The notes under the pieces are model-generated. The model saw only the letters and a list, made by a program, of their open reading frames with translations, made no database searches and was not told the DNA's origin. From the sequence record OQ990040: a stretch of 64,000 nt of DNA; one strand, given 5' to 3'. This document shows, piece by piece, positions 34,472 through 62,132 of this stretch. This stretch comes from Escherichia phage SUT_E520. Within the stretch, counting starts at the first letter, position 1, and each line of letters starts with the position of its first letter. The translations under genes and the position numbers were made by a program.

Positions 34472-36821
34472 GACACTAAAATTTAGTAACGTTATGTCTT
34501 ACGGTAAGGACATCGTAATTCATCTCGATAAGAATCCCGTTACTCAACTAATCGGGGGCAATGGGCTAGGGAAATCTACAATTGCTACTGTTATTGAAGA
34601 ACTATTCTATAATAAGAACTCACGCGGTATTAAGAANNNNNNNNNNNNNNNNNNNNNNNNNNNNNNNNNNNNNNNNNNNNNNNNNNNNNNNNNNNNNNNN
34701 NNNNNNNNNNNNNNNNNNNNNNNNNNNNNNNNNNNNAATGGGCTAGGGAAATCTACAATTGCTACTGTTATTGAAGAACTATTCTATAATAAGAACTCAC
34801 GCGGTATTAAGAAAGATGCTCTGTTCTCTTGGTCTTCTCCGAAAAAAGAATACGATATGCACGCTTATTTCTCGAAAGATGAGGATGAGTATGAACTGCA
34901 TAAAGTAGTTAAGTCAACTGCTAAAGTAACTCTTATTAAGAATGGGGAAGATATTAGTGGACACACGGCAACCCAAACATACAAGATGATTGAAGAAATT
35001 ATGGGTGGTGACTTCCAAACATTCACCAAACTGATTTATCAATCGGTGGGCTCCAATCTAGACTTTCTAAAAGCAACGGATGCAACACGTAAGGCTTTTC
35101 TTGTTAACTTGTTCAATCAAGAACAGTATAAAGAAATGTCAGAAACTATTAAGGCTGACCGTAAAGAAATAGCAAATACCTTAAACAATTTGCAAGGCCA
35201 AATGGCTGTAATTACGAAAATCCTTAATGGAAAGAATAATCTAGGAACTCTACAGGAACCTGTAGAAGTACCGGAGTTTGATGAAGAACCATTAGCACAA
35301 GAACTTACTGAATCGAAAATTAAGGCGGCATTAGCCAAGTCTCAAGAGGCTAATATTACTAAATTGCGTAATTTGGACAAAGCTGTACAAGTTGCCGAAC
35401 AATCTTTCGAACCTTTCAAAAATTTACCCGCGCCCACCGACCAAAACGAAGAGATCTCAAGTGTTACGCGTGACCTAACGATTGTGACCTCACGTGCTGG
35501 TGAAGTTAAGAAACGTTATCAGAAGTTCAAGCAAGAGGCTTCAAATACTGAATGTCCTACTTGTGGTACTCATCTGGANNNNNNNNNNNNNNNNNNNNNN
35601 NNNNNNNNNNNNNNNNNNNNNNNNNNNNNNNNNNNNNNNNNNNNNNNNNNNNNNNNNNNNNNNNNNNNNNNNNNNNNNGAAGTTAAGAAACGTTATCAGA
35701 AGTTCAAGCAAGAGGCTTCAAATACTGAATGTCCTACTTGTGGTACTCATCTGGATACAACTGCCGCTCAAAAAGCAATGGATATGGCTAGAACAGAATA
35801 TGATCCTCTGTTCAAAGAGAAGCAATCTCTTGAAGCTAAGCTAGAACAGTTGAGGAAAGAACAACTTGAGTACGTTGCGTATATTAGAGCAAAGGATGCC
35901 TTGGATAAAGCAGTGGTAGCTAGGGACGAGTTCAAAAATTCAATGAGTGATGCTTCTTTTGAAGAACTCAATGTGCAAATCCTACAGGTGCAAATCCGAC
36001 AATTAGAACAGGAAATCGCTGATGGNNNNNNNNNNNNNNNNNNNNNNNNNNNNNNNNNNNNNNNNNNNNNNNNNNNNNNNNNNNNNNNNNNNNNNNNNNN
36101 NNNNNNNNNNNNNNNNNNNNNNNNNGATGCTTCTTTTGAAGAACTCAATGTGCAAATCCTACAGGTGCAAATCCGACAATTAGAACAGGAAATCGCTGAT
36201 GGACGTTCTAAGGTTGCAATTGCCAAAGAGCATAATGCAAATGTCGAATTAGCCAATGCAAAATATAAAGCGAAACTAGAACAGATTGAGAAAGCTGAAG
36301 CAGAAATGTCCGAGATTACTTCCAAATTAAATGAAGTATCAGAAGCTGTTGCTGATCTCGATATTCTGATTGCTGCATTGAAGAATTTAGTAGGATATAA
36401 ACTAGAGCATAGTGTGAAAGTATTTGAAGAACTAATTAATAAATACCTTTCTATTATGACTGGCGGTAAATTCGCACTTGGATTTGAACTTGATGAAACA
36501 AAATTACAAGTAGTAATCTTCAATGATGGAAATCGTACCAGTATGGAGAACTGCTCTACTGGTCAACAGAGTCGAATTAACCTAGCAACCCTGTTAGCTA
36601 TTCGGATGCTGTTAACATCTATTAGTAAAGTTAATATTAATCTTCTATTCCTTGATGAAGTAATTAGCTTTATTGATACGAAAGGACTTGACACTCTTGT
36701 TGAATTATTAAACGAGGAAGAAAGTCTAAATTCTATCATTGTTTCTCATGGGCATACGCATCCACTAGCTCATAAGATTACTGTCAAAAAAGATGCAGAA
36801 GGATTTTCCTACTTAGAATAA
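34452..36821 (+). CDS. SbcC/Rad50-like ATPase; length inflated by three artefactual 177-nt insertions
   Basis: Walker A GGNGLGKST, long coiled-coil with CPTCG zinc hook-like motif, C-terminal signature/Walker B region LLFLDEVISFID. ATG 34452 (MSKITIKTLKF) preferred over the track start 34377. Confidence 0.7.
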   Translation: MSKITIKTLKFSNVMSYGKDIVIHLDKNPVTQLIGGNGLGKSTIATVIEELFYNKNSRGIKXXXXXXXXXXXXXXXXXXXXXXXXXXXXXXXXXXNGLGKSTIATVIEELFYNKNSRGIKKDALFSWSSPKKEYDMHAYFSKDEDEYELHKVVKSTAKVTLIKNGEDISGHTATQTYKMIEEIMGGDFQTFTKLIYQSVGSNLDFLKATDATRKAFLVNLFNQEQYKEMSETIKADRKEIANTLNNLQGQMAVITKILNGKNNLGTLQEPVEVPEFDEEPLAQELTESKIKAALAKSQEANITKLRNLDKAVQVAEQSFEPFKNLPAPTDQNEEISSVTRDLTIVTSRAGEVKKRYQKFKQEASNTECPTCGTHLXXXXXXXXXXXXXXXXXXXXXXXXXXXXXXXXXXEVKKRYQKFKQEASNTECPTCGTHLDTTAAQKAMDMARTEYDPLFKEKQSLEAKLEQLRKEQLEYVAYIRAKDALDKAVVARDEFKNSMSDASFEELNVQILQVQIRQLEQEIADXXXXXXXXXXXXXXXXXXXXXXXXXXXXXXXXXXDASFEELNVQILQVQIRQLEQEIADGRSKVAIAKEHNANVELANAKYKAKLEQIEKAEAEMSEITSKLNEVSEAVADLDILIAALKNLVGYKLEHSVKVFEELINKYLSIMTGGKFALGFELDETKLQVVIFNDGNRTSMENCSTGQQSRINLATLLAIRMLLTSISKVNINLLFLDEVISFIDTKGLDTLVELLNEEESLNSIIVSHGHTHPLAHKITVKKDAEGFSYLE
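34637..34736. other. N-run flanked by identical 77-nt copies (34560-34636 = 34737-34813)
   Basis: Exact 77-mer AATGGGCTAGGGAAATCT...GCGGTATTAAGAA on both sides. Confidence 0.9.
35579..35678. other. N-run flanked by identical 77-nt copies
   Basis: GAAGTTAAGAAACGTTATCAG...ACTCATCTGGA repeated on both sides. Confidence 0.9.
36026..36125. other. N-run flanked by identical 77-nt copies
   Basis: GATGCTTCTTTTGAAGAACTC...ATCGCTGATGG repeated on both sides. Confidence 0.9.
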
Positions 36822-36824
36822 AAC

Positions 36825-37484
36825 ATGGCTGTAGATAGTAGAGAGAAAGGTAAACGTGGTGAATATCAGGTAAGAGATATTCTACGTGAGCGTACAGGTC
36901 TTGAGTGGGAACGTGTTCCTGGCTCTGGTGCTTTTGGCCAGAGCCACGGACTGAAAGGTGACATCTANNNNNNNNNNNNNNNNNNNNNNNNNNNNNNNNN
37001 NNNNNNNNNNNNNNNNNNNNNNNNNNNNNNNNNNNNNNNNNNNNNNNNNNNNNNNNNNNNNNNNNNNCGTACAGGTCTTGAGTGGGAACGTGTTCCTGGC
37101 TCTGGTGCTTTTGGCCAGAGCCACGGACTGAAAGGTGACATCTACCTTCCACCACAAAGCGGACACATTAGTAAATACTGCTTCGAAGTTAAGTGGTATA
37201 AAGATGATAATATATCAAGTAATTTATTTAATGTTGGTGAATCCACTCTAGAGAAGTGGTGGCAGCAGTGCTCACGTGAAGGTGAGCAGATGAACTCCAA
37301 ACCTGCATTAATATTCAAAAAAGACAGAGGACAGTGGTTAATAGCTTTGGATAGCTCAGACCCAATGGTTGACAACTTAATGAGTCGTACCCATATGGTG
37401 TTAAATAAGAAAGACATGGAAATCGTAATTGGTTTATTTGAACCGTGGCTACATCATGCATCTGTTGAGGACTTAATTAAATAA
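36825..37484 (+). CDS. hypothetical protein (T5 D14-like by position); inflated by one artefactual duplication
   Basis: ORF track; sits between the SbcC-like and flap endonuclease genes. Confidence 0.45.
   Translation: MAVDSREKGKRGEYQVRDILRERTGLEWERVPGSGAFGQSHGLKGDIXXXXXXXXXXXXXXXXXXXXXXXXXXXXXXXXXXRTGLEWERVPGSGAFGQSHGLKGDIYLPPQSGHISKYCFEVKWYKDDNISSNLFNVGESTLEKWWQQCSREGEQMNSKPALIFKKDRGQWLIALDSSDPMVDNLMSRTHMVLNKKDMEIVIGLFEPWLHHASVEDLIK
36968..37067. other. N-run flanked by identical 77-nt copies
   Basis: CGTACAGGTCTTGAGTGGGAACG...GGTGACATCTA repeated on both sides. Confidence 0.9.
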
Positions 37485-38536
37485 TGAGTAAATCCTGGGG
37501 AAAATTTATTGAAGAAGAGGAAGCTGAAATGGCTTCCCGTCGTAACCTAATGATTGTCGATGGAACTAACTTAGGCTTTCGCTTCAAACATAACAACAGT
37601 AAAAAACCATTTGCCTCAAGTTATGTTTCCACTATTCAGTCTCTAGCAAAATCTTATTCTGCTAGAACTACAATAGTTTTAGGAGATAAGGGGAAGTCTG
37701 CATTCCGCTTAGAGCATTTACCTGAGTATAAGGGTAATCGAGATGAGAAATACTCTCAGCGTACGGAAGAGGAGAAAGCGTTAGATGAGCAGTTCTTCGA
37801 GTATTTGAAAGATGCTTTCGAGTTATGTGAAACTACATTCCCAACTTTCACTATTCGGGGTGTAGAAGCAGATGATATGGCNNNNNNNNNNNNNNNNNNN
37901 NNNNNNNNNNNNNNNNNNNNNNNNNNNNNNNNNNNNNNNNNNNNNNNNNNNNNNNNNNNNNNNNNNNNNNNNNNNNNNNNNTTGAAAGATGCTTTCGAGT
38001 TATGTGAAACTACATTCCCAACTTTCACTATTCGGGGTGTAGAAGCAGATGATATGGCAGCTTATATTGTTAAACTGATCGGGCATCTATATGATCACGT
38101 TTGGCTGATTTCTACTGATGGTGACTGGGATACTTTATTAACTGATAAAGTATCTCGCTTCTCTTTCACAACACGTCGTGAATACCATCTTCGTGATATG
38201 TATGAGCATCATAATGTTGACGATGTAGAGCAGTTTATCTCCCTGAAAGCAATTATGGGTGATTTAGGGGATAATATCCGAGGTGTTGAAGGTATTGGGG
38301 CAAAGCGCGGGTATAATATTATTCGTGAATTTGGTAACGTTCTGGATATTATTGATCAGCTTCCACTGCCTGGAAAACAGAAATATATACAGAATTTAAA
38401 TGCTTCGGAAGAATTGCTTTATCGAAACCTAATTCTGGTTGATTTACCTACCTACTGTGTGGATGCTATTGCTGCTGTAGGTCAAGATGTATTAGATAAA
38501 TTTACAAAAGATATTTTGGAGATTGCAGAACAATGA
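37484..38536 (+). CDS. 5'-3' exonuclease / flap endonuclease (FEN); inflated by one artefactual duplication
   Basis: PIN-like N-terminus LMIVDGTNLGFR and H3TH-like region; corrected length 350-59 = 291 aa. Confidence 0.85.
   Translation: MSKSWGKFIEEEEAEMASRRNLMIVDGTNLGFRFKHNNSKKPFASSYVSTIQSLAKSYSARTTIVLGDKGKSAFRLEHLPEYKGNRDEKYSQRTEEEKALDEQFFEYLKDAFELCETTFPTFTIRGVEADDMXXXXXXXXXXXXXXXXXXXXXXXXXXXXXXXXXXLKDAFELCETTFPTFTIRGVEADDMAAYIVKLIGHLYDHVWLISTDGDWDTLLTDKVSRFSFTTRREYHLRDMYEHHNVDDVEQFISLKAIMGDLGDNIRGVEGIGAKRGYNIIREFGNVLDIIDQLPLPGKQKYIQNLNASEELLYRNLILVDLPTYCVDAIAAVGQDVLDKFTKDILEIAEQ
37882..37981. other. N-run flanked by identical 77-nt copies
   Basis: TTGAAAGATGCTTTCGAGTTATG...GATGATATGGC repeated on both sides. 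Confidence 0.9.
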
Positions 38537-38979
38537 TTAAAATTAAATTAACTCATCCAGATTGTATGCCTAAGATTGGTTCCGAAGATGCCGCAGGTAT
38601 GGATCTGCGAGCATTCTTTGGTACTAATCCTGCCGCAGACTTACGCGCTATTGCACCAGGCAAATCTCTTATGATTGACACCGGTGTCGCGGTAGAAATT
38701 CCGCGAGGTTGGTTCGGTTTGGTAGTTCCTCGTAGTTCTTTAGGTAAACGCCATTTGATGATTGCAAATACCGCAGGAGTGATTGACTCAGACTATCGTG
38801 GAACTATTAAGATGAATCTGTTTAACTACGGTTCTGAAATTCAAACTCTGGAGAATTTTGAAAGACTTTGTCAGCTAGTAGTAGTACCACACTACTCAAC
38901 TCATAATTTTGAAATCGTTGACGAACTAGGGGAGACTGATCGTGGGGAAGGTGGATTTGGAAGTTCAGGAAGCAAATAA
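38533..38979 (+). CDS. dut: dUTP pyrophosphatase
   Basis: 148 aa with dUTPase motifs AAGMDLRA, RSSLG, GVIDSDYRG, C-terminal GFGSSG. Confidence 0.9.
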   Translation: MIKIKLTHPDCMPKIGSEDAAGMDLRAFFGTNPAADLRAIAPGKSLMIDTGVAVEIPRGWFGLVVPRSSLGKRHLMIANTAGVIDSDYRGTIKMNLFNYGSEIQTLENFERLCQLVVVPHYSTHNFEIVDELGETDRGEGGFGSSGSK

Positions 38980-39208
38980 TTTTACTGATCCTAATATGAT
39001 AGGTATTGATACTAATATGTTAACTTATCAGATTAAAACTGCTGAACCAGAAACGTTTGTGCTAAAAACAGATAAAGAAGGTAATGTTACTTTCTGGGAC
39101 CCTGAAGGTTTTGTAGAGCTTTGTACTAATACGGATAATGAGCATTTAAAACTACTATTAGCTATTTATAATCTTGGTATTATAGAAGGTTGTAGAAGCA
39201 AGTAATAG

Positions 39209-39246
39209 AAAAACCCCGGTGGATTTTGTCCACCGGGGTTTCTTTG
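39209..39246. terminator. bidirectional rho-independent terminator at the early/late convergence point
   Basis: AAAAA-CCCCGGTGGA-TTTTG-TCCACCGGGG-TTTCTTT: perfect 10-bp GC-rich stem with A-run and T-run on either side. Confidence 0.75.
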
Positions 39247-39261
39247 TACTATGTATATGTA

Positions 39262-42030
39262 CTATGAGTTATCTGGCTTAATAAGCTCGCTAACAAGTTT
39301 CTTCAGTTCGGTTAATTCTTGCTCAAGTTTGTTAACTTTATCAGCTTGATAACGAAATGCGCAAGCTAGATCTGCCATAATGACGTTGTTATCAAGTGCT
39401 AATGTGTCATCTGCTTTGTCAACAACAATTTGGCGGTCTACATATTCTTCACCGTCATCGTTAACACCTATAACATCTGCAAAAATATCTCCACCAGGAA
39501 TTAATTTTACATATTCCGGGTCTATTTTTAGAAGGTCTTGGGCTATTAAGCCAAATCGCTGTATGTTGCTTCCATTGTATTTAAACATTGTCGGAAGCCA
39601 CTGCATAACGCGATCATAGCTTTCTTTTCCATCTGTATAGATTATATCGTGCTTTAAATCTCTGTCAGAGTTAGCGGCCTTTTGAAAAATGAAGTTTCCA
39701 TTTGATGACCATGTGGTTATATCGTTTGAGGCTGGTTGAAACTGGAAGTTACAGAAAAAATTACCATCACCACGAAGTCTTAACGAGCAAAAAGGCCAAG
39801 CATTATTTCCCTGTGGGATAAGACCCCAAGTTGCACGAATTGGATAACCACCAGTTGATTGTGTACCCCATGAAAGGCCAGGCGCCCATCCACCATCATT
39901 GTTAGGAATAATCTCGCCCCAAACAAGAGCATTACCCCAATAGTTAGGATCATCCCAGCCCATTTGTTGGGTTTTGCCAGTGTATTGAGCAGAATGAGTT
40001 CTGCCGTCAGGGTAAAACTTGTGCATATAGGACTGTATCCCTGCTTGATACAATTCTATTCCAAAAGATTCAACGTGTGTGTCGCCTCTTCTGATTAAAC
40101 CAGCGATAGCGTAATCGTCATACCAGTTGTAACGACTTACACCAGTCCATGTGTTTATTGGTGGATTCATGATTGAGAATAGTTGTGACGCATTGCGTTC
40201 ATTCCCGTCTGCATAAATACCAGCCCCAGGAGCTAAGGAAATACTTTTCGCTCCCGAAAAAGTACCATTTTCATTAAACTGATAATACTGTGCTAACCCA
40301 TTATGAAATACGCCTATTGTATGCTTTCCTACGCCTACTTGAGTCTCAAAATACGACTGAGAAGAACCAATATCTTCGCCTTGGGTATTCTTTAGTTTTG
40401 AATGGTATATACCTGCGTTTGCAGTAACTGCATTTTCCGTTTCATTTTCAACATTAAGACTAAGGAACTTTGGCGCATGTTTCTCACCAAGCCCTATATT
40501 ATTTCTGATACCATTCGCATCCTTAGCACCTGTACCACCAAATTGAATACCTAGTGGTAGCCATTGATCGGTGGTAGCATCATAAACGCCCCAATGATCC
40601 CCGTCAGCTGGAATGGTTAGATACTTGTTTTTATTTGGAGAATATAAAACTGTTTCTACAGAATTCTGAAACAGCCTATCAACTCCTAAATTATATCTAG
40701 CACCTTCAGGAGTATCTGCTCCTGTACCCCCAGCCGCAGTTGATAATGGAAGAGTTTCCCATGAAATTCCGTCACCTGTTGCATTTCTCTGAAGTACAAT
40801 AAGACCATCATCTCTAATAACAAATCTATATAATCTATTATGTGAATATAAAAAAGTATGAACCCCATCTTGCACAAGTGAGTCTATAAGGAGTGTCTGA
40901 CGAGAAGCATTGATATCCAACAGATCTGAAAGATTATTTTCTTTTAATAACGATTTACTAATGATACCTTCAGCTTTTCCAGCAGCCACTTCCGCGCGCC
41001 CAGCGTCTGTAGATGCGCTTTGTGCGCTACCAGCAGCATTGCTAGCTTGTTGTCCTGCTTCGATAGCGCTATTGCTTGCTTGTGCAGCGGAAGCAGCAGC
41101 AGCATCTTTTAGCGTGGTAGTTTCGGACACAGCAGCGTCCTTAATTCCCTGTGTGTCTATTTTTAGCTGCTCAACGTCTGATTTTAAAGCTACTGTCTCT
41201 GCTACTGCAGTATCCTTAATACCTTGTGTATCTATTTTTAGCTGTTCAACATCTGATTTTAAGCCTTGAATAGTAGTTACTGATTGGCTAGCTGAGGCTG
41301 CGGAATGGGCTGCATTGGTTTCACTAGTTTTTGCATTGGTTTCACTAGTTTTTGCATTGGTTTCACTAGCTTTTGCATTAGTTTCCGAGGTTTTTGCAGC
41401 GGATGCTGATGCGGCGGCTTGTGCAGAGAATATTTCTGCCCCATCTCTATAGCCTTTAGAATCCGAAGCAGAAGCAGCAGCATTAGTTTCACTAGCCTTT
41501 GCCTTATCTTCACTAGTCTTTGCTGCAATAGCAGAAGCAGCAGCATTAGTTTCACTAGCCTTTGCCTTATCTTCGCTAGCCTTTGCATTAGTCTCACTAG
41601 TTTTTGCGTTAGTCTCACTAGTTTTTGCATTAGTTTCACTAGCCTTTGCCTTATCTTCGCTAGTTTTAGCATTAGTCTCAGATATTTTAGCTGCAGCTGC
41701 TGATTCCTCCGATTTAGTAGCTGATGCAGCAGATTGAGTAGCAGATGTAGCGGACTGAGTGGCAGAGGCTTCAGAAGCTCCAGCAGAAATAGCAGCTTCC
41801 TGTTCAGAGTTCTTAGCATTAAGCTCCGAAGTTTTAGCCGCTATCTCAGAATCTTTTGCAGCTGCAGCAGACTTAGCTGCAGCCTCAATAGAAGATACTA
41901 ACTCACTTGCAGTAATAGAGCTAATAGAATTACCTAGAGTTACTGTATATCTAGGAAACTTACTAGCAGTAGCTTTAGTATCATCAATATTTAATATTTG
42001 TTGTACAATAATTTTAGTAGTTACTGCCAT
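39262..42030 (-). CDS. L-shaped tail fiber protein (pb1-like) with C-terminal intramolecular chaperone domain
   Basis: N-terminal Ala/Ser-rich coiled region with TSETNAK-type heptad repeats; C-terminal S74-like region ...DLKHDIIYTDGKESYDRVMQWLP...GLIAQDL.... Confidence 0.75.
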   Translation of the reverse strand: MAVTTKIIVQQILNIDDTKATASKFPRYTVTLGNSISSITASELVSSIEAAAKSAAAAKDSEIAAKTSELNAKNSEQEAAISAGASEASATQSATSATQSAASATKSEESAAAAKISETNAKTSEDKAKASETNAKTSETNAKTSETNAKASEDKAKASETNAAASAIAAKTSEDKAKASETNAAASASDSKGYRDGAEIFSAQAAASASAAKTSETNAKASETNAKTSETNAKTSETNAAHSAASASQSVTTIQGLKSDVEQLKIDTQGIKDTAVAETVALKSDVEQLKIDTQGIKDAAVSETTTLKDAAAASAAQASNSAIEAGQQASNAAGSAQSASTDAGRAEVAAGKAEGIISKSLLKENNLSDLLDINASRQTLLIDSLVQDGVHTFLYSHNRLYRFVIRDDGLIVLQRNATGDGISWETLPLSTAAGGTGADTPEGARYNLGVDRLFQNSVETVLYSPNKNKYLTIPADGDHWGVYDATTDQWLPLGIQFGGTGAKDANGIRNNIGLGEKHAPKFLSLNVENETENAVTANAGIYHSKLKNTQGEDIGSSQSYFETQVGVGKHTIGVFHNGLAQYYQFNENGTFSGAKSISLAPGAGIYADGNERNASQLFSIMNPPINTWTGVSRYNWYDDYAIAGLIRRGDTHVESFGIELYQAGIQSYMHKFYPDGRTHSAQYTGKTQQMGWDDPNYWGNALVWGEIIPNNDGGWAPGLSWGTQSTGGYPIRATWGLIPQGNNAWPFCSLRLRGDGNFFCNFQFQPASNDITTWSSNGNFIFQKAANSDRDLKHDIIYTDGKESYDRVMQWLPTMFKYNGSNIQRFGLIAQDLLKIDPEYVKLIPGGDIFADVIGVNDDGEEYVDRQIVVDKADDTLALDNNVIMADLACAFRYQADKVNKLEQELTELKKLVSELIKPDNS
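41300..41700 (-). repeat. 21-bp tandem repeats inside the tail fiber gene
   Basis: Iterated TTTTGCATTGGTTTCACTAGT-like units in two blocks; generate same-strand phantom ORFs 41277..41819 and 41419..41703. Confidence 0.7.
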
Positions 42031-42452
42031 TATTTAGTTACCCCATCACTGATAAATACTTTACCCTCCATTATACGAAAGGAGCTAATTGCAGATCCTA
42101 TAACATCTCTAGTCATAATTATATCATAGTATCCTGCGAATCGCTGACGAGGGTTATATTTATCTCTATCTTTAGATGCTCTAGCCCCTATATTTTCCAC
42201 AGATTCTACTGGCAAACTTATAGCTACAGCCCCTTGAGCAGCATCAATAATATTAGTAGTAAAGGATGCTAATATCTCCGCATTCTCATCTAGGCTATTT
42301 TTTATAGTACCCCTTAGAGAATACCCGGTTAAGTTAACGGGGGTATTTGTAGGTGGATAAGTACTATCATCAACATCTAAGAACTGCATCATTAAACCAT
42401 ATGGTACTTTCTCATCTATTACTAAATCTATAACTCTATTTTCAGTACTCAT
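42030..42452 (-). CDS. tail collar protein (T5 p132-like, 140 aa)
   Basis: Size and position between pb4-like and tail fiber genes match the T5 arrangement as I recall it. Confidence 0.55.
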
Positions 42453-42455
42453 TAT

Positions 42456-45035
42456 TTACCTTATATGGATGTACCCGTTTTGCAGGTCTATCTTCATTCT
42501 GTAATAGGCTTCCGGNNNNNNNNNNNNNNNNNNNNNNNNNNNNNNNNNNNNNNNNNNNNNNNNNNNNNNNNNNNNNNNNNNNNNNNNNNNNNNNNNNNNN
42601 NNNNNNNNNNNNNNNACCATTGCTGGGTTAACCCAACCGGAACCATTCCATTGACGAGTAAATGCAGATTGCGGAGCATTACTATTAAACTCTGTCAATA
42701 CATCATATCTAACTGGAGGACTACCAAAGTTATTCTGGAAGAAGGCATTAGCCTGCCCATCATCCCAACCACCAAGACCAGGAATACCTAAGGAATACAT
42801 TCCAGGACCACGTTGTCCATCATGTCCTATAGTACCTTCAGTACCACTCCACTGAACTACATCAGACCAGCTAGTACCTGCAAGTAGCTTATTAGTAACT
42901 GGGTCAAGTGTACCCGTAGTCGCATAGATATTTTGTGTCATATCTGTACGATTAGGTGGAGTTTTTGACCAACCAGGAGGCGGATAATCTTGTTCTAGTG
43001 GCTTTGCTGGAAGTGCAGTTGATATCTTATAAACAAATACTGTTTGCTTGCCCTGTATACCTGTTTGGATATCTACATCGCCATTTGGTGTTCCAATTAC
43101 TACTCCACTAGAAATACGTAGTACATCACCATCATAACGAATCCACTGTGTGGCATTACCAATGTCTAACTTAGCTTTGGCAGAGGTATTATCCATGCCC
43201 ATCCAAATACCGGAGTTATTATCCCCCCAAGATTTACCTTGAGTGTAAATTGCTGGATTATCCTTACCGGATAAGTTAGTCATGATAAAATTCGCAGCAT
43301 TAATATCTCTAGTAATTACTTTACCATCAACGTTAACAACACGGTTTATAGGATCAAAAGAAATAGGTGCTTTTCCCTCTTCATCTAGCAGACCAATGTT
43401 AATAGCACCAGTAGCTGCATCGATTAAGAATGTCTGTCTCCAGATTTCTCCATCTTTCATGCTGCCCTTAATAAAGGCATAGTTAACATCAATACCAGTC
43501 TCATTGACAAAGCTGTTATCTAGAGGAGTATCTTCATTCAATATAAATGTTACAGGAGCTGATTCTGTTATATCTTGTTTATTTGGTCCCCAGGCAATTG
43601 ATGATACCTTAAAGGTATGTTCAACTTTCCATGGGAATGATATAATTGTTGCAGCTCTGGCAGCACCAACGTTTATCTTTTGNNNNNNNNNNNNNNNNNN
43701 NNNNNNNNNNNNNNNNNNNNNNNNNNNNNNNNNNNNNNNNNNNNNNNNNNNNNNNNNNNNNNNNNNNNNNNNNNNNNNNNNNACCTTAAAGGTATGTTCA
43801 ACTTTCCATGGGAATGATATAATTGTTGCAGCTCTGGCAGCACCAACGTTTATCTTTTGAGCTTTAGCCCAGCCAGTCTTAGCGTATTCTTCAGAATTTA
43901 TATATGTAACCAAGAACTCACGAACATTAGCACCACCACCGCGTTCCCAATCCCACTCAATTCTAACATCATATCGTTCTTTACCATCAGCAATTCGTGC
44001 AGCTTTAAAAACAATATTGATAGGTGCAGTAGGAGGAACAAAATTATAAGCTACTGTTAAAATATTAGGGAATTCATAGTACCCAGAAGAATCAACTGTA
44101 ACACCATCAGGCATAGTTACTTGACCAGATATTCTGATCTTATAATCTCCGATAGGAACTCCACCAAATTTAATAGTAGNNNNNNNNNNNNNNNNNNNNN
44201 NNNNNNNNNNNNNNNNNNNNNNNNNNNNNNNNNNNNNNNNNNNNNNNNNNNNNNNNNNNNNNNNNNNNNNNNNNNNNNNACCATCAGGCATAGTTACTTG
44301 ACCAGATATTCTGATCTTATAATCTCCGATAGGAACTCCACCAAATTTAATAGTAGAACCTAAAGCCCCAATGTAATACTTAGTCCAAGGACTGTCTTCA
44401 GTAGCTGTACTTTTTAACTCAATAGTACAGTAGCTTGCTTCACCAGTTGTTTCTACGACAACTATCGGTGCACCTACCCCAACATCCACAGGTTCTGATT
44501 CAGATCTTGCTGCAACAATTATTGGCTTCTCTTTTGTCCTAAAGTTAGTCTCATTAGAGAGATTGATACCAATCTTAGCCTCTAGCAGTTCAGAATCAAT
44601 AATAGAGTCGTAGAAAGCCCCTTGAATCTCGTAAGAGGTTGAAGGGGTCAGGTTATTAATCATTATGAAGAAAGTATCTATACCAGTATAATCACGTCTA
44701 TCTATACTTTCTCCTGTCTTTAACCAAAAAGATCTACCAATAANNNNNNNNNNNNNNNNNNNNNNNNNNNNNNNNNNNNNNNNNNNNNNNNNNNNNNNNN
44801 NNNNNNNNNNNNNNNNNNNNNNNNNNNNNNNNNNNNNNNNNNNGAAGAAAGTATCTATACCAGTATAATCACGTCTATCTATACTTTCTCCTGTCTTTAA
44901 CCAAAAAGATCTACCAATAACGTCATAGTCAGTATATATAGAGTGCTGGACATATGCCATTGTATATCCAGTCATTATACTATTTAAGACCATTTTGGCT
45001 GGTGCATTATTCGAAATCATTAAATGGATGCCCAC
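42456..45035 (-). CDS. tail tip central fiber protein (pb4-like); inflated by three artefactual duplications and carrying one further N-run
   Basis: Large beta-rich protein between the baseplate hub and collar genes; corrected length about 859 - 3x59 = 682 aa. Confidence 0.65.
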   Translation of the reverse strand: MGIHLMISNNAPAKMVLNSIMTGYTMAYVQHSIYTDYDVIGRSFWLKTGESIDRRDYTGIDTFFXXXXXXXXXXXXXXXXXXXXXXXXXXXXXXXXXXIGRSFWLKTGESIDRRDYTGIDTFFIMINNLTPSTSYEIQGAFYDSIIDSELLEAKIGINLSNETNFRTKEKPIIVAARSESEPVDVGVGAPIVVVETTGEASYCTIELKSTATEDSPWTKYYIGALGSTIKFGGVPIGDYKIRISGQVTMPDGXXXXXXXXXXXXXXXXXXXXXXXXXXXXXXXXXXTIKFGGVPIGDYKIRISGQVTMPDGVTVDSSGYYEFPNILTVAYNFVPPTAPINIVFKAARIADGKERYDVRIEWDWERGGGANVREFLVTYINSEEYAKTGWAKAQKINVGAARAATIISFPWKVEHTFKXXXXXXXXXXXXXXXXXXXXXXXXXXXXXXXXXXQKINVGAARAATIISFPWKVEHTFKVSSIAWGPNKQDITESAPVTFILNEDTPLDNSFVNETGIDVNYAFIKGSMKDGEIWRQTFLIDAATGAINIGLLDEEGKAPISFDPINRVVNVDGKVITRDINAANFIMTNLSGKDNPAIYTQGKSWGDNNSGIWMGMDNTSAKAKLDIGNATQWIRYDGDVLRISSGVVIGTPNGDVDIQTGIQGKQTVFVYKISTALPAKPLEQDYPPPGWSKTPPNRTDMTQNIYATTGTLDPVTNKLLAGTSWSDVVQWSGTEGTIGHDGQRGPGMYSLGIPGLGGWDDGQANAFFQNNFGSPPVRYDVLTEFNSNAPQSAFTRQWNGSGWVNPAMXXXXXXXXXXXXXXXXXXXXXXXXXXXXXXXXXXPEAYYRMKIDLQNGYIHIR
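42516..42615. other. N-run (assembly gap) without duplicated flanks, near the 3' end of the pb4-like gene
   Basis: 100 N; flanks differ. Confidence 0.9.
43683..43782. other. N-run flanked by identical 77-nt copies
   Basis: ACCTTAAAGGTATGTTCAACTTTCC...TTTATCTTTTG repeated on both sides. Confidence 0.9.
44180..44279. other. N-run flanked by identical 77-nt copies
   Basis: ACCATCAGGCATAGTTACTTGACC...TTTAATAGTAG repeated on both sides. Confidence 0.9.
44744..44843. other. N-run flanked by identical 77-nt copies
   Basis: GAAGAAAGTATCTATACCAG...CTACCAATAA repeated on both sides. Confidence 0.9.
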
Positions 45036-52722: not shown

Positions 52723-52783
52723 TTTAGATGCTGAGCTTTTAATACATTTGTCTGCAAAATCAGCAACAGCATCTAGGAGTTCT

Positions 52784-54084: not shown

Positions 54085-54088
54085 TTAA

Positions 54089-55495: not shown

Positions 55496-55521
55496 TTAAT
55501 TATTTTCTCCTAATCTGTAAC

Positions 55522-56007: not shown

Positions 56008-56010
56008 TTA

Positions 56011-56778: not shown

Positions 56779-57290
56779 TATACTCTCCTGTATACTTCAA
56801 TAATAGTACGAATATGCTCTGGAATACCAGACTTAGTGCTATTGAAGGTTACTGTTTCACCACCAATTGTTTTAGCTTGGCGATAATCTTGTTTATGCCA
56901 ATGATCTACTAGCATACACGCTGCTAACTTAAGATCTTCAGGCACTGGGTTAAATCCACCTTGTGTATACGCTACGTCCATATAACCTTCTGGAGGATTA
57001 AATTTGAGAAGGATAATACCGTCAGAGTATAGTTTATACTGCTCTGGGTCAATCTCATTATCATTAATCGTCACTTTAGTTACGGAGGTAGCAGATGGTG
57101 AACTCAGAAAATATTTCCTACGTGTAGGTTTTGTATTGATTAACTGGTCTACCGCATCAGCATCATCCATGCCTAGAAGGCTCGTAATCAGCGCATTGGC
57201 AGCAGTAATCATCATTTCTACACCGGATTCTAGTTCAGGTCGCTTTAAGCTACCATATAATCTATAATCTTCGGCTGTAATGATTTGCAT
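56778..57290 (-). CDS. head completion / head-tail connector protein (170 aa)
   Basis: Position immediately after the capsid gene; ATGA-type overlap with the next gene. Confidence 0.5.
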   Translation of the reverse strand: MQIITAEDYRLYGSLKRPELESGVEMMITAANALITSLLGMDDADAVDQLINTKPTRRKYFLSSPSATSVTKVTINDNEIDPEQYKLYSDGIILLKFNPPEGYMDVAYTQGGFNPVPEDLKLAACMLVDHWHKQDYRQAKTIGGETVTFNSTKSGIPEHIRTIIEVYRRV

Positions 57291-57350
57291 TTATTTTTCC
57301 CCAATAAAAAAGGAGAGCCGAAGCTCTCCTTATCGGCTGAAAAGCCTGTA

Positions 57351-58727
57351 TTAAGATGCAGCGTAAGCACCAGATACAACGCCGTTATTAAAGTAACGTT
57401 GCAGGTTAACACGCTGAGTAACGTAGTACGCATCACGCTGTTTACCAGCTTGGCGCTCACGTTCAACAGTAACAGCACGCTGACGCGGCATTACGAAGTT
57501 ATCTTTATAAACAATAACTGCGAACTCTGCAGAGTTAGCTTTAGCCGGGAAGAACTCAGAAACTACAACCGGCAGACCGTAAATACGACCAACCTGACCT
57601 TGCAGTTTAACAGCATCATTACCAACTTGGGCAACATCCTGCCATTCTTCATCTTCCAGCAGATCGTAATAAGCATCCATAGATACAATCAGTACCAGTT
57701 TGCTCAGTTTCAGACCATGACGGCCCAGTTTACGGCGCAGTTTAGAGATAGTTTTAGCAGTTACCAGAACAGAACCATCAGCTTTAGCTTCAGTAATAAC
57801 TTTAGCACTATCGCCTTCAGCCAGTTTCAGCAGACCCTTAGGCTTACCAGTACCGTCACCAGTCATGAAAGCTTCTTCGATAGAAACAGCGTGTGCTTCA
57901 ATCAGACGCTTACGCAGCAGCGGTAGCAGGGAGAAGATTGCATCTTCTTCAGTTTCATCAGTAATGAAGGACTTAGCAGCCAGTTTATAGGTTTTGAACT
58001 GAATTTCAGTCAGAGCACCTTTAACTTCGTCACCAGTAGTAGCATCAGTACCATATGCGCTAGCATCTACCCAAGTAGCTTTACCAGCATCTGGTTCAAC
58101 CAGCATAGTAAGAATTTTGCTGGACATTGGCAGTTCTTCAAACAGAGCACCAACTACTAGTTCTTTCTGCAGGTCACGAATAATACGCTGGGAGAAAATA
58201 GTTTCGTAGCTTTCACTAGAAACTTCTACTGAAGAGGACTGGTTTACAGTTTTCAGGTGTCTCTGGCCATGTTCGGTATCAAATACACCTTTTTCCATCA
58301 CGTAAGACAGAAGAACCAGTTTTTCAACTTCATCTTCAAAGTTTTCCTGAGTACCGTACAGTGCTTTAGCTACGCTATCACCAACGAAGGAACGACCTTC
58401 ACGAGCTGCTAGCAGAGATTTGATTTCGTCCTGAAGACCAACAATAGTTTCCTGCTGTTTTTCTACAGTCTGTGCAAACAGTTCTGCGCTCTTCTTAGAT
58501 TTCTCATCCAGGGATTTAACCAGTTCCAGAGCTTCTTCTAGCTTCTGACGATCTTCGCCAACTGCTTTAGAAACCAGGTCATTCATACGAGCCAGTTCTT
58601 TTTCTTCCTGCTCTTTACGCATACGTTCAGCTTCAGCAGCTTTCTGAGCAGCGGTCAGACCTTCCAGAGATTTAGCCAGATCACCCAGACCAAGTTCTTC
58701 TTTCAGCTTATTAATATCAATAGTCAT
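57351..58727 (-). CDS. major capsid protein precursor with N-terminal scaffold (delta) domain (pb8-like, 458 aa)
   Basis: N-terminal about 150 aa is a charged coiled-coil followed by an HK97-fold-like body; length matches T5 pb8 as I recall it; optimal-codon bias; hairpin plus T-run downstream. Confidence 0.9.
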   Translation of the reverse strand: MTIDINKLKEELGLGDLAKSLEGLTAAQKAAEAERMRKEQEEKELARMNDLVSKAVGEDRQKLEEALELVKSLDEKSKKSAELFAQTVEKQQETIVGLQDEIKSLLAAREGRSFVGDSVAKALYGTQENFEDEVEKLVLLSYVMEKGVFDTEHGQRHLKTVNQSSSVEVSSESYETIFSQRIIRDLQKELVVGALFEELPMSSKILTMLVEPDAGKATWVDASAYGTDATTGDEVKGALTEIQFKTYKLAAKSFITDETEEDAIFSLLPLLRKRLIEAHAVSIEEAFMTGDGTGKPKGLLKLAEGDSAKVITEAKADGSVLVTAKTISKLRRKLGRHGLKLSKLVLIVSMDAYYDLLEDEEWQDVAQVGNDAVKLQGQVGRIYGLPVVVSEFFPAKANSAEFAVIVYKDNFVMPRQRAVTVERERQAGKQRDAYYVTQRVNLQRYFNNGVVSGAYAAS

Positions 58728-58744
58728 TTTTAAATAATTCTCCG

Positions 58745-59377
58745 TTATTCTTTAACGTAGCCTAAAGCTATCGCAAGTTTTTCTAGTTCAGAAAGATTAC
58801 GTTCTTGAGCTGGGACAGCTTTAGAACTTATTGCAGTAAAAGATTTACGCCATTCAGTATAATCATGACCATTCATACTCTTAGCGAGATTGAATGTTGA
58901 GTCCTGATTACAAGGTACAGAAACTACCGAAACTTCGTATAGTTCTAAATCTTTAATAATAAATATATCAGTAGCTTCATCCCACTCTGCATCTAGGCAG
59001 CGGAATCCGATACTAAAAGTTTTCAGTACACCGTTTTTAATTAGCGAAAAGATAGCCGGGTCAGAACTTTCATAGATCTCACATTCGATTTCGAGACCCA
59101 TTTCAGTAGGATTAAGATCAATACACTTGCCGATTGGACGACGATGGTCGTGTCCGAAAAGAATAATCGGGTTTTTCATGTAGTTAGCAAGTGCATTAGA
59201 TGTTTTCCATGCAGAGGCAGGAATTACATCACCAGCGCGATCTTTACTAATTGTATTAGCGAATCCACGGATTTTTACAACACCCTCTTTGGATTCGCTA
59301 TCAATAGATTTAATATAAGCATCTAAATGAACCGGTGCTGATTTTAACTTGTTATAGTCAATAGCAGCTTGTGTCAT
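58745..59377 (-). CDS. prohead maturation protease (pb11-like, 210 aa)
   Basis: Position between decoration and capsid genes; size matches T5 pb11. Confidence 0.75.
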   Translation of the reverse strand: MTQAAIDYNKLKSAPVHLDAYIKSIDSESKEGVVKIRGFANTISKDRAGDVIPASAWKTSNALANYMKNPIILFGHDHRRPIGKCIDLNPTEMGLEIECEIYESSDPAIFSLIKNGVLKTFSIGFRCLDAEWDEATDIFIIKDLELYEVSVVSVPCNQDSTFNLAKSMNGHDYTEWRKSFTAISSKAVPAQERNLSELEKLAIALGYVKE

Positions 59378-59380
59378 TTA

Positions 59381-59863
59381 TTAGCCTCCAACACCGGGAT
59401 TAACCGTTACTGTGCATGCAGTAGAAGGTTTACTAACTTTCTTGCTATCTGTAACCGTTACTTTATAGACTCCCGAATCATCAGTAGCTGCTGCAGGCTT
59501 AGTATAGGTAGCTCCTGAAGCATCTGGAATAGGAGAACCATCTTTAGTCCATGCATAAGTATAAGGACCAGTTCCGCCGGTTGCAGTAACAGAAAGTGTT
59601 AATGCTGTACCTTCTGTAATAGACATACTAGCAGTTAAATCTTTAGAAAGAGTTAATGGTGGAGCAGGAGGAACTGCTTTACCATAAGCCTCTACAAATT
59701 TCTTCCATACTTTACGGTTAGTATGCGCAGATGAAAGTCCTAGTTCTCTACGCAGAAAAGCATAGCTAGGAACATATTTATGCGCAGCAACCGTAGCAAA
59801 GAAGATATGAGATTCTGGTAGTTTTTCACCAAAAATGGTCTTTAGACCATTATAATCAATCAT
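59381..59863 (-). CDS. capsid decoration protein (pb10-like) with C-terminal Ig-like domain
   Basis: 160 aa; C-terminal TLSVTATGGTGPYTYAWTKDGSPI...GVYKVTVTD Ig-like motif. Confidence 0.7.
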   Translation of the reverse strand: MIDYNGLKTIFGEKLPESHIFFATVAAHKYVPSYAFLRRELGLSSAHTNRKVWKKFVEAYGKAVPPAPPLTLSKDLTASMSITEGTALTLSVTATGGTGPYTYAWTKDGSPIPDASGATYTKPAAATDDSGVYKVTVTDSKKVSKPSTACTVTVNPGVGG

Positions 59864-61431
59864 TCTTTATCTCCCTCGGTGGAACCTTGAGGTCTGCCAC
59901 CTTCTTGACCAGATACACCTGTTACAGAACCAGCAACGTTAGCAGGAATACGAATCTTATCCATCTGCTCATCATCTAAAGGTTCAAGGTTCAGCTCTAA
60001 ACGAGCTTCGTTACCAGTCATAATACCATTATTAACCAATGAGGTTAAATGTTTAGCCTCAGCTTCTTTATCTGGTGTTAATGCAGCTACTTCCTTAGTA
60101 TTAGGAGTAATCTTATAACCAAAAAAGAAAGTAAGAGAACTAGTCAGTTTGTTCAGCATAGGAATGATAGTCATATAATAGAACAGTTCGATATTTGGTC
60201 GAATGTTCGCATTATTACCACCATCAAGCAGTACTTGCGGAACACCAAAGGCTAGACAGATAGATTTATTAAATCCTTCAATGTCTTCCTTGAAGTCTAG
60301 GTCTTTAAAAGAGGATATTTGGGAGTACGGTTTAGCTTTCATACCACCATCTAGAATCAGGACAGAGGACTGACCAGTACTAGGATTATAATCTAGTTGT
60401 AATTCTTCTTGTTTACGCTCACGCAATTTCTTGTTCAGGATTTCATCCGTCTCAAGAATAAGACCAATCACNNNNNNNNNNNNNNNNNNNNNNNNNNNNN
60501 NNNNNNNNNNNNNNNNNNNNNNNNNNNNNNNNNNNNNNNNNNNNNNNNNNNNNNNNNNNNNNNNNNNNNNNAGTTGTAATTCTTCTTGTTTACGCTCACG
60601 CAATTTCTTGTTCAGGATTTCATCCGTCTCAAGAATAAGACCAATCACAGTTCCATTATCGAGGAATTTCTCTTTAAAGTTAAGCATCTTAGAACGCTTC
60701 TCAAGAGAGTCAATAACAGTAGCAACACGAGATTGTCCAGAAATTTGAGAATTTGTGCCACACACGTAACTGTTATCCTTTATAAAGATAATCTCATCTA
60801 CGCGATAGTCTATCTGGTTATTAAATATAAATTTTTTGATAAACTTATTGGCATCTGCCTCTACTTGCATTAATGCAGCAGGGACATGGTAAAGTGCTGT
60901 GCCATCCCAATAGATGTATGCACAACCTTCAAAAAGTAGGTCAGTGACTACAAGTCTACGGAATGTGCTTATATNNNNNNNNNNNNNNNNNNNNNNNNNN
61001 NNNNNNNNNNNNNNNNNNNNNNNNNNNNNNNNNNNNNNNNNNNNNNNNNNNNNNNNNNNNNNNNNNNNNNNNNNTGTGCCATCCCAATAGATGTATGCAC
61101 AACCTTCAAAAAGTAGGTCAGTGACTACAAGTCTACGGAATGTGCTTATATCCATGAATGGATTAGGTCGTACATTTAAGAGAGTGTCTAGAGTCTTTGC
61201 CTTGATGCCATTGGCATACGTGACAATATTATATTTATCTCCGACAGTATAAGAACACTCCGCCGCACTATCTATAACCATATTAGCAGTTCTATTGAGA
61301 ATCTCAATTTTACTGTAGGCTTGTCCAGTGGTAAAAGGCTTACGGTTAGTGCGATGACTAACTGGTTCCATGTCTCTTATAATACGTTGACCCGGATTTA
61401 GCTTTTCAGTAATCCAGCTTTTAAAACCCAT
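59860..61431 (-). CDS. portal protein; inflated by two artefactual duplications
   Basis: Position after terminase; corrected length 523 - 2x59 = 405 aa. Confidence 0.8.
   Translation of the reverse strand: MGFKSWITEKLNPGQRIIRDMEPVSHRTNRKPFTTGQAYSKIEILNRTANMVIDSAAECSYTVGDKYNIVTYANGIKAKTLDTLLNVRPNPFMDISTFRRLVVTDLLFEGCAYIYWDGTXXXXXXXXXXXXXXXXXXXXXXXXXXXXXXXXXXISTFRRLVVTDLLFEGCAYIYWDGTALYHVPAALMQVEADANKFIKKFIFNNQIDYRVDEIIFIKDNSYVCGTNSQISGQSRVATVIDSLEKRSKMLNFKEKFLDNGTVIGLILETDEILNKKLRERKQEELQXXXXXXXXXXXXXXXXXXXXXXXXXXXXXXXXXXVIGLILETDEILNKKLRERKQEELQLDYNPSTGQSSVLILDGGMKAKPYSQISSFKDLDFKEDIEGFNKSICLAFGVPQVLLDGGNNANIRPNIELFYYMTIIPMLNKLTSSLTFFFGYKITPNTKEVAALTPDKEAEAKHLTSLVNNGIMTGNEARLELNLEPLDDEQMDKIRIPANVAGSVTGVSGQEGGRPQGSTEGDKE
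60472..60571. other. N-run flanked by identical 77-nt copies
   Basis: AGTTGTAATTCTTCTTGTTTACGC...GACCAATCAC repeated on both sides. Confidence 0.9.
60975..61074. other. N-run flanked by identical 77-nt copies
   Basis: TGTGCCATCCCAATAGATGTATGC...GTGCTTATAT repeated on both sides. Confidence 0.9.
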
Positions 61432-62132
61432 TATAAGAACCTTGCGAATCCTGATTTTGTTTCAGTCTTGACTTGTGTCTTTTCTTGAGGATTCTGTAAT
61501 TTGTCTTTCTGCTTTTGAACCCACANNNNNNNNNNNNNNNNNNNNNNNNNNNNNNNNNNNNNNNNNNNNNNNNNNNNNNNNNNNNNNNNNNNNNNNNNNN
61601 NNNNNNNNNNNNNNNNNNNNNNNNNTCCTGATTTTGTTTCAGTCTTGACTTGTGTCTTTTCTTGAGGATTCTGTAATTTGTCTTTCTGCTTTTGAACCCA
61701 CACTTTTTGCTTATTAGCAGAAAATAAAGGAGGTTCTTTTGTGTAAACCTTATGTAATAATTGGTGATGGTGTACACAAAGGGTAACAGTGTCTTCTACT
61801 AGCTCATGCCTATATCGATCATAGAATGCCGTCCTATTTGAAAGGACTATTTCTTCGTCAGTGAAATCCAATTGGAGTTCTTTAGCAAATTTTTTAACTA
61901 GTAGAGACACCGTATGGTAATGATGAAGCTCTAATTCTTCAGCACAACCGCAGATAGCACATTGAGAGTCTTTTTTATATTGACTTTTTATTCCGTCTCT
62001 CATAAGGGATATAGCATCGCGTTTATATTTTATATTGCTTGCCATAGTGTTCTCCTCAACTGTATGAATATAGTATACATAATCGTATCGAATTTGTAAA
62101 GGGGATTTTAAAATGCAGGAATGGGATACCAA
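61431..62132 (-). CDS. hypothetical Cys/His-rich protein; inflated by one artefactual duplication
   Basis: CAICGC...HHYH...CVHHHQLLH cluster suggests metal binding; lies between terminase and portal genes. Confidence 0.45.
   Translation of the reverse strand: MVSHSCILKSPLQIRYDYVYYIHTVEENTMASNIKYKRDAISLMRDGIKSQYKKDSQCAICGCAEELELHHYHTVSLLVKKFAKELQLDFTDEEIVLSNRTAFYDRYRHELVEDTVTLCVHHHQLLHKVYTKEPPLFSANKQKVWVQKQKDKLQNPQEKTQVKTETKSGXXXXXXXXXXXXXXXXXXXXXXXXXXXXXXXXXXWVQKQKDKLQNPQEKTQVKTETKSGFARFL
61525..61625. other. N-run flanked by identical 77-nt copies
   Basis: TCCTGATTTTGTTTCAGTCTTGAC...TGAACCCACA repeated on both sides. Confidence 0.9.

Follow-up and report, generated by a model that had tools for sequence, protein, structure and literature searches.

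Known parallels of k-mer overlaps in phage assemblies

For 150-bp reads, the default maximum k of the assembler SPAdes is 77. Elsewhere, SPAdes was run with k=21,33,55,77 and produced a circular contig whose first 77 bp were the same as its last 77 (PMC8767329). The duplications described here, found in a 64,000-nt stretch of Escherichia phage SUT_E520 (OQ990040; hereafter the window), are likewise exact, presumably also have the length of the final k (77), come from the same assembler and are cured by trimming one copy. However, whereas the published overlap joins a single circular contig to itself, those in the window lie between different neighbouring contigs and have been fixed in a deposited scaffold with 100 N between the copies. 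A nearer parallel is provided by SUT_E420 (OQ990039.1, 'partial genome'), which comes from the same laboratory, paper and pipeline as SUT_E520. Like the window, its region 40001-104819 contains runs of 100 N with exact 77-nt duplicate flanks (12 of the 14 N-runs), and its contigs are all exact substrings of the SUT_E1520 genome. Two contigs, of 15,628 and 403 nt, are identical in the two assemblies, and four breakpoints coincide, but most SUT_E420 breakpoints lie elsewhere and more sequence is missing at its true gaps (652 and 475 bp). The first position of the window aligns with SUT_E420 position 41931, yet the N-runs are arranged differently, so that SUT_E420 is not the source of the window. 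The third point of reference, the complete Tequintavirus genome SUT_E1520 (OQ885479.1), has the same sequence as the repaired window over 62,193 nt; it differs in being free of N-runs and duplicated 77-mers, and provides the 540 bp that the window lacks.

Overlaps and gaps in the window

The window contains 15 N-runs, each of exactly 100 N. As the original prediction had stated, the 77 nt preceding the N-run are identical to the 77 nt following it at 11 of them, without a single mismatch in a direct comparison of the flanks. The longest exact flank match is 77 nt at every one of these junctions and never longer, and the span 34560-61702 is bounded exactly by the first left and the last right copy (Table 1). 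Since the chance of an exact 77-nt match at one fixed offset is approximately 4^-77, the flank identity is not random. At the four other N-runs, 52-62 of the 77 flank positions are mismatched. Each junction 77-mer is present in two copies in the window, at the flanks only, and in one copy in positions 40001-107754 of phage EC148. A search of viral_contigs for the exact junction pattern (30 nt + 100 N + 30 nt) gave no match. Segments 4 and 6 happen to be of equal length (842 nt), without any similarity to each other.

Table 1. Positions of the duplicated junctions and true gaps in the window, with the genes affected and the outcome of comparison with complete genomes
Feature	Position	100 N	Gene or region	Comparison and effect
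Junction 1	34560-34813 (77-mers 34560-34636 and 34737-34813)	34637-34736	D13/SbcC-like (+ strand)	77-bp overlap in EC148 and SUT_E1520
Junction 2	35502-35755	35579-35678	D13/SbcC-like	77-bp overlap in EC148 and SUT_E1520
Junction 3	35949-36202	36026-36125	D13/SbcC-like	77-bp overlap in EC148 and SUT_E1520; breakpoint common to SUT_E420
Junction 4	36891-37144	36968-37067	D14	77-bp overlap in EC148 and SUT_E1520
Junction 5	37805-38058	37882-37981	D15 flap endonuclease	77-bp overlap in EC148 and SUT_E1520
Junction 6	43606-43859	43683-43782	pb4 central straight fibre (- strand)	77-bp overlap in EC148 and SUT_E1520
Junction 7	44103-44356	44180-44279	pb4 (- strand)	77-bp overlap in EC148 and SUT_E1520
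Junction 8	44667-44920	44744-44843	pb4 (- strand)	77-bp overlap in EC148 and SUT_E1520; breakpoint common to SUT_E420
Junction 9	60395-60648	60472-60571	portal (- strand)	77-bp overlap in EC148 and SUT_E1520; breakpoint common to SUT_E420
Junction 10	60898-61151	60975-61074	portal (- strand)	77-bp overlap in EC148 and SUT_E1520; breakpoint common to SUT_E420
Junction 11	61449-61702	61526-61625	145-aa SciA nicking endonuclease (- strand), the Cys/His-rich protein of the original prediction	77-bp overlap in EC148 and SUT_E1520
True gap		29240-29339	DNA polymerase	replaces 231 bp (SUT_E1520 74328-74098); residues 443-519 lost, reading frame broken
True gap		33454-33553	end of D11 ssDNA-binding gene, intergenic spacer and first 20 codons of D12/SbcD	replaces 103 bp
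True gap		42516-42615	3' part of pb4	replaces 124 bp; in frame by luck, 8 codons short
True gap		63569-63668	small terminase (sciB/terS)	replaces 82 bp; in frame, 6 codons too long

The window is colinear with Tequintavirus genomes, with 96-100% identity to EC148, T5_ev212 and SUT_E1520. All 16 N-delimited segments are exact and colinear substrings of SUT_E1520, and in this genome as well as in EC148 neighbouring segments share exactly 77 bp at each of the 11 duplicated junctions. The overlap between neighbouring contigs is thus exact and of one fixed length, as is expected of unmerged de Bruijn graph overlaps. By comparison with SUT_E1520, the other four N-runs conceal real sequence, as had been suspected, and once repaired the window (62,193 nt) is, base for base, SUT_E1520 103567-41375 on the opposite strand. 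The N-runs are of constant length despite true distances of -77 (11 times), +231, +103, +124 and +82, which fits the convention of 100 N for a gap of unknown length. The piece missing at the gap in the 3' part of pb4 was found inside contig 11 of SUT_E420.

Could the duplications be real, that is, tandem 77-bp repeats flanking unsequenced DNA within phage genes? Only the appearance of the raw sequence speaks for this, together with the preserved reading frame (177 nt equal 59 codons), which could resemble the result of selection but follows arithmetically from 100 + 77. Both copies would then be expected in independent assemblies or relatives, yet the complete relatives examined are without the duplication, and SUT_E1520, identical to every segment, has each 77-mer once, in contiguous sequence. 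A query of 4,501 bp spanning D12-D15 covers 3,616 bp (4,501 - 5x177) in the best complete genomes; at least 80% of it is covered in one place by 314 of the 447 matching phage records, and in all 15 top matches listed the span is about 3,616 bp, not 4,501 bp. Single contigs of the independently assembled sibling SUT_E420 bridge seven of the 11 junctions and two of the four gaps, and at the bridged junctions the 77-mer is present once. Moreover, the spacer of 100 N is the same at 15/15 runs, including the four without duplication. Genuine duplication can therefore practically be dismissed, and we assign a probability of about 0.95 to the reading that the eleven duplications are unmerged k-mer overlaps, accompanied by four small true gaps, and are an artefact rather than biology. 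In the paper on this phage series, 150-bp paired-end reads were assembled with SPAdes 3.15.3, multiple contigs were joined manually in SnapGene, and Prokka was used. The reads and assembler are consistent with the origin in a k=77 de Bruijn assembly that had been proposed; the final k of 77 itself and the use of 100-N spacers are inferred. Because SPAdes would have ended at k=77, neighbouring graph contigs would share exactly one 77-mer. The submitters may then have used a related genome to put the contigs in order and linked them by conventional 100-N spacers while leaving the shared 77-mer untrimmed, so that each such joint would add 177 nt (59 codons).

Consequences for genes and annotation

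Untrimmed joints of this kind would lead to over-long ORFs in a naive six-frame reading and to truncated CDSs in the deposited annotation, and both are present. Since 100 + 77 nt is a whole number of codons, the unrepaired ORFs run through the junctions in frame, and the predicted inflation by 59 codons per junction agrees with the raw and true codon counts for D13 (789/612), D14 (219/160), the flap endonuclease (350/291), the portal (523/405) and SciA (204/145). When each N-run and one flank copy are collapsed, these ORFs are continuous, and the sequence encodes full-length, gap-free D13/SbcC (612 aa), D14 (160 aa), flap endonuclease (291 aa), portal (405 aa) and SciA (145 aa); the original prediction had anticipated 291 aa and about 405 aa for the flap endonuclease and portal. 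Its expectation that collapsing would restore a pb4 of about 688 aa did not hold. The protein has 685 aa in SUT_E1520, EC148 and the relatives examined, and collapsing restores the gene only partly because a true gap of 124 bp lies within it. The name SciA nicking endonuclease was taken from the annotations of related records; a Pfam scan of this 145-aa Cys/His-rich protein gave no match at E<=0.001.

In the deposited annotation the CDSs are truncated rather than inflated, an example being a 160-aa 'flap endonuclease', presumably because N-runs interrupt gene calling by the annotation program. Truncated CDSs predicted from the window were compared with the deposited SUT_E520 proteins, and six of six matched exactly (WLW39261.1, WLW39265.1, WLW39266.1, WLW39267.1, WLW39268.1 and WLW39286.1); two of these proteins are listed for SUT_E520 only. 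In a DNA search, the flap endonuclease fragment specific to SUT_E520 matched just two short, unrelated ENA metagenome contigs. Through the SUT_E520 and SUT_E420 records, truncated proteins stand in NCBI nr under full functional names: a 'flap endonuclease' and a 'portal protein' of 160 aa each, a 64-aa 'protein D14', a 171-aa 'exonuclease subunit 2' and a 311-aa 'DNA polymerase'. Automated ORF scans through the N-runs would give, conversely, proteins that are 59 to 177 codons too long, as well as a false D11-D12 fusion, an ORF of 594 aa (32687-34471) generated by the gap at the end of D11.

Cause of the contig breaks and a possible genotype mixture

The breakpoints themselves are not placed at random with respect to natural variation. 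Using polymorphism in public relatives as an indirect measure of variation in the sample that was sequenced, we found the base just outside the 77-mer to be polymorphic in a nine-genome panel at 10 of the 11 junctions, against a random expectation of 4.05 (P=0.00025). In phage Elw alone the flanking base differs at 9/11 junctions, compared with a baseline of 0.106 (P=7e-8). The polymorphic side strictly alternates (right, left, right, left) along successive junctions, the four true gaps are likewise bounded by variable sites, and most SUT_E420 junctions, too, lie next to sites that vary among T5-like phages. Bubbles that opened and closed in the de Bruijn graph at variable sites could have ended the contigs. 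In de Bruijn assemblies of strain mixtures, contigs end one k-mer from variable sites and on alternating sides, as is the case here, with the difference that the alternative arms are absent from the window and the bubble is deduced from polymorphism in the population. At the true gaps, short variable contigs of 236-385 nt (154 nt more than the missing length) may have been omitted from the scaffold. Because of the variable flanking sites at 10/11 junctions and the alternating sides, it is probable, judging from the sequence patterns, that the reads held a second, closely related genotype, whether from a mixed lysate or from cross-contaminated libraries, and that this caused the breaks.

The same overlap artefact might also have arisen from breaks of another kind, at coverage drop-outs or at branches created by sequencing errors at very high depth. 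SPAdes assemblies of phage libraries that are uneven or sequenced too deeply are commonly fragmented, the search for a second genotype yielded none, and junction 11 is without flanking polymorphism in the nine-genome panel. Drop-outs, however, would not leave exact overlaps of length k, and random error branches would miss natural polymorphic sites, in contrast to the enrichment and alternation seen here; the flank pattern also recurs in SUT_E420 and at the four true gaps. In addition, according to the paper, the receptor-binding protein of SUT_E520 is slightly different, yet every contig of the window is identical to SUT_E1520. Breaks due to coverage or errors therefore appear unlikely. Genomic repeats, in which 77-mers recurring elsewhere make paths unresolvable, are the commonest cause of branching in de Bruijn graphs, and the L-shaped tail fibre gene does have internal degenerate repeats. 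These coincide with no junction, however, and we reject repeats as the cause, as very improbable, because the junction 77-mers are single copy in EC148 40001-107754, a region that lies outside the first 40 kb and the terminal repeats, and occur in the window only at the two flanks.

Variation within the sample thus remains the preferred cause of the breaks. When the second genotype was sought in ten relatives, not one shared the 77-mers of every junction, and each of the nine divergent relatives of the panel failed to fit at one junction or more. The fourth phage of the series, SUT_E1620 (an Epseptimavirus of about 85% identity), was considered as a contaminant and rejected: it differs inside most junction 77-mers, with 12 differences in that of junction 1 and 23 in that of junction 8, and it shows no significant enrichment at the flanks (5/11, P=0.07). 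Neither does SUT_E420 qualify as the carrier of the alternative alleles, all its contigs being exact substrings of SUT_E1520.

A more tentative reading, which we consider possible if somewhat doubtful, is that the SUT_E520 and SUT_E420 lysates each held a second T5-like genotype beside the SUT_E1520 type, so that the breakpoints would record a real biological mixture. The second genotype would then show full identity in long stretches, such as 15.6 kb with tail and head genes, and would be interrupted by mosaic replacement patches. Two of these, of about 0.7 kb each, would lie within D13-D14, and short ones in pb4 and portal. A further patch would stretch from the flap endonuclease gene across the L-shaped tail fibre and into pb4, and another from SciA across the terminase genes in the direction of the receptor-binding protein.

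The duplications themselves represent no new element, gene or mechanism, and their relevance is to database curation. The public records of SUT_E520 and SUT_E420 both carry unmerged 77-bp overlaps and small true gaps, and an exact repair of the whole window is possible from SUT_E1520. The examination of junction flanks for polymorphism offers a simple, read-free indicator that a fragmented assembly stems from a mixed sample. If the mixture is real, the deposited records would be composite, and the breakpoints would capture a moment of patchwise recombination among T5-like phages that circulate together.

Duplicated flanks and their resolution in complete genomes

A direct scan of the window found 15 N-runs, all of exactly 100 N, and at 11 of them the preceding 77 nt are identical to the following 77 nt without a single mismatch, the exact match never extending beyond 77. 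The first left copy and the last right copy delimit 34560-61702, exactly the interval of the original prediction, whose 11 duplicated flanks are thus borne out. Chance alone would yield 77 matching nt at a fixed offset with a probability of about 4^-77, so the pattern is real. Each junction 77-mer occurs in the window as its two flanks only, and the flanks of the other four N-runs mismatch at 52-62 of 77 positions.

The region belongs to a T5-like phage (Tequintavirus). Searching with 4,501 bp that span five junctions gave matches in 447 phage records. In the best complete genomes, SUT_E1520 (OQ885479.1), EC148 and T5_ev212 (99.9-100% identity), the query covers 3,616 bp, i.e. 4,501 - 5 x 177. 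When the window was split at the N-runs and each of the 16 segments aligned to EC148, all were colinear, with neighbors overlapping by exactly 77 bp at 11 of 11 duplicated junctions; in SUT_E1520 all 16 are exact colinear substrings with the same overlap. Once the overlaps were merged and the four remaining gaps filled from SUT_E1520, the repaired window of 62,193 nt (64,000 - 1,500 N - 847 + 540) was base for base SUT_E1520 103567-41375 on the opposite strand. This is what was to be expected of unmerged contig overlaps, as originally proposed, and the four non-duplicated N-runs do hide real sequence. We give a probability of about 0.95 to the reading that the unmerged k-mer overlaps and the four small true gaps are an assembly and submission artefact.

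The artefact probably comes from a SPAdes run ending at k=77, the default for 150-bp reads, in which graph-adjacent contigs would share one 77-mer; the contigs would have been ordered along a relative and joined by the conventional 100-N spacer with the 77-mer untrimmed. The 77-nt size matches the de Bruijn overlap suggested earlier, and in an independent SPAdes assembly (largest k 77) the contig ends were identical over 77 bp, although for the present record we infer the value of k.

Other differences from EC148 were observed. Window 1-29239 is a mosaic, with blocks of 99.8%, 96.4% and 98.7% identity, and ~190 bp of EC148 (57289-57479, near the SIR2-family deacetylase region) are missing at window ~15157-15159. 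A ~530-bp insertion not in EC148 (49910/49945) separates the genes for the two subunits of the class Ia ribonucleotide reductase and contains a 160-aa ORF. The SUT phages carry this ORF; its product has an HNH_3 endonuclease domain (Pfam E=1.6e-8) and is probably a homing endonuclease of the free-standing type.

The sibling record and the cause of the breaks

The source study describes four phages, SUT_E420, SUT_E520 (OQ990040), SUT_E1520 and SUT_E1620, and gives as its methods 150-bp paired-end reads, SPAdes 3.15.3, the joining of contigs by hand in SnapGene, and Prokka (PMC10668671). SUT_E420 (OQ990039.1, a 'partial genome' of the same lab series) has 14 N-runs of 100 N in 40001-104819, 12 of them with exact 77-nt duplicate flanks, mostly at positions unlike those of the window. 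Its contigs, like the window segments, are all exact substrings of SUT_E1520, and the two records have four breakpoints and two identical contigs (15,628 and 403 nt) in common. The large terminase of SUT_E420 and SUT_E520 was placed on a separate tree branch from that of SUT_E1520 (PMC10668671). In the window and in SUT_E420 alike the gene (SUT_E1520 41881-43197; SUT_E420 103498-104814) lies inside exact SUT_E1520 substrings, so that the branch difference does not stem from the deposited sequences.

Nine divergent T5-like genomes were aligned to the collapsed window (each N-run and one 77-mer copy removed), and the first base beyond each shared 77-mer was scored. In this panel the flanking base varies at 10 of 11 junctions, versus 4.05 +/- 1.61 under random placement (P=0.00025), and in phage Elw alone at 9 of 11 (baseline 0.106, P=7e-8). 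The variable side alternates over junctions 1-8, beginning on the right and ending on the left, and is the right at junction 9 (in some relatives also the left), the left at junction 10 and neither at junction 11. Variable sites likewise bound the four true gaps, and the pattern was replicated at SUT_E420's own junctions. Alternation is expected if successive junctions are bubbles opening and closing in the de Bruijn graph. Taking polymorphism in public relatives as a proxy for variation in the sample, we consider it likely that a second, closely related genotype was present among the reads.

Other origins of the junctions are less satisfactory. There is virtually no chance that they are genuine tandem 77-bp duplications, because the identical complete genome SUT_E1520 has none, the complete relatives examined speak against them, and single SUT_E420 contigs bridge 7 of the 11 junctions (and span 2 of the 4 gaps). 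Repeat-induced breaks are very improbable: the junction 77-mers are single copy in EC148 40001-107754 and confined to the two flanks in the window, and the degenerate direct repeats of the L-shaped tail fibre gene (80-95% identity, ~40-150 nt, secondary BLAST hits) lie at no contig junction. Coverage drop-outs or error branches would yield the same artefact but leave both the exact k-length overlaps and the match with natural polymorphic sites unexplained, and are rather unlikely.

Differences between the second genotype and the SUT_E1520 type would be patchy: two patches of ~0.7 kb within D13-D14, one reaching from the flap endonuclease gene across the L-shaped tail fibre and into pb4, short ones in pb4 and portal, and one from SciA through the terminase genes and onward. 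The slightly different receptor-binding protein of SUT_E520 (PMC10668671), whose gene starts just past the window's end, fits such a patchy genotype. It was not recovered among SUT_E1620 and the nine panel genomes, all rejected as they differ inside most junction 77-mers. The mixture may have been present in the lysate or have arisen by library cross-contamination.

Reading frames and deposited proteins

Naive ORFs cross the N-runs in frame, and raw and true codon counts agree with the predicted inflation of 59 codons per junction for D13, D14, FEN, portal and SciA, the last being the 'Cys/His-rich protein' of the original prediction; the lengths given there for collapsed FEN (291 aa) and portal (405 aa) were exact. 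pb4 is also inflated by junctions, but its true length in these phages is 685 rather than ~688 aa and it stays incomplete after collapsing, as a real 124-bp gap remains. With this exception, EC148 proteins align to the collapsed window full-length and gap-free at 99.75-100% identity. The 231-bp gap costs the DNA polymerase residues 443-519 and causes a frameshift. At the 103-bp gap, D11 (ssDNA-binding protein) reads on into D12 (SbcD-like), a false ORF absent from the artefacts listed earlier, and the 124-bp (pb4) and 82-bp (small terminase) gaps keep the frame by chance.

Features of the window and deposited SUT_E520 products
Feature	Window position	Raw (codons)	True (codons)	Deposited product	Remark
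Duplicated-flank N-runs (starts)	34637, 35579, 36026, 36968, 37882, 43683, 44180, 44744, 60472, 60975, 61526
True gaps	29240; 33454; 42516; 63569				231; 103; 124; 82 bp missing vs SUT_E1520
HNH_3 ORF	7277-7759 (-)
DNA polymerase	29415-30350			311 aa, WLW39261.1
False D11-D12 ORF	32687-34471				594 aa; D11 257 aa, D12 325 aa
Exonuclease subunit 1	33578-34471			297 aa, WLW39265.1
Exonuclease subunit 2	36306-36821			171 aa, WLW39266.1
D13/SbcC-like		789	612		three junctions
D14	37290-37484 (product)	219	160	64 aa, WLW39267.1
D15 flap endonuclease (FEN)	38054-38536 (product)	350	291	160 aa, WLW39268.1	102,434-bp contig
L-shaped tail fibre repeats	~41467-41680 (-)
pb4 central straight fibre		854	685		three junctions, minus 8 codons (real gap)
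Portal	59860-60342 (product)	523	405	160 aa, WLW39286.1	two junctions
SciA nicking endonuclease		204	145
Large terminase	61.7-63.1 kb (-)

The deposited annotation contains truncated rather than inflated proteins; the predicted inflation holds for naive reading through the N-runs only. In SUT_E420, CDSs begin anew at the first in-frame ATG past each N-run, and the annotated CDSs for D12, D13, D14, FEN, pb4, portal and DNA polymerase are fragments cut short. Applied to the window, this restart rule predicted six truncated products, and all six are present in NCBI as Escherichia phage SUT_E520 proteins. On these protein matches the window is almost certainly a part of OQ990040. The truncation presumably results from a gene caller that does not build genes across N-runs. 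Every substantive point of the original prediction is supported, with refinements as to gap sizes, pb4 and annotation truncation.

T5-like protein fragments (relatives of DNA polymerase, D13, D14, FEN and portal) are also deposited as 'partial' proteins of Exophiala dermatitidis, Luteibacter rhizovicinus and Enterococcus faecalis (for the last, many MFP90.../WP_4114... entries, from contigs of 228-1,194 bp), which looks like T5-like phage contamination of unrelated assemblies.

In NCBI nr, truncated scaffold products of SUT_E520 bear the functional names of the complete proteins. The junctions are no biological feature of the phage; they are an artefact of unmerged overlaps in a public phage record and matter for curation alone.
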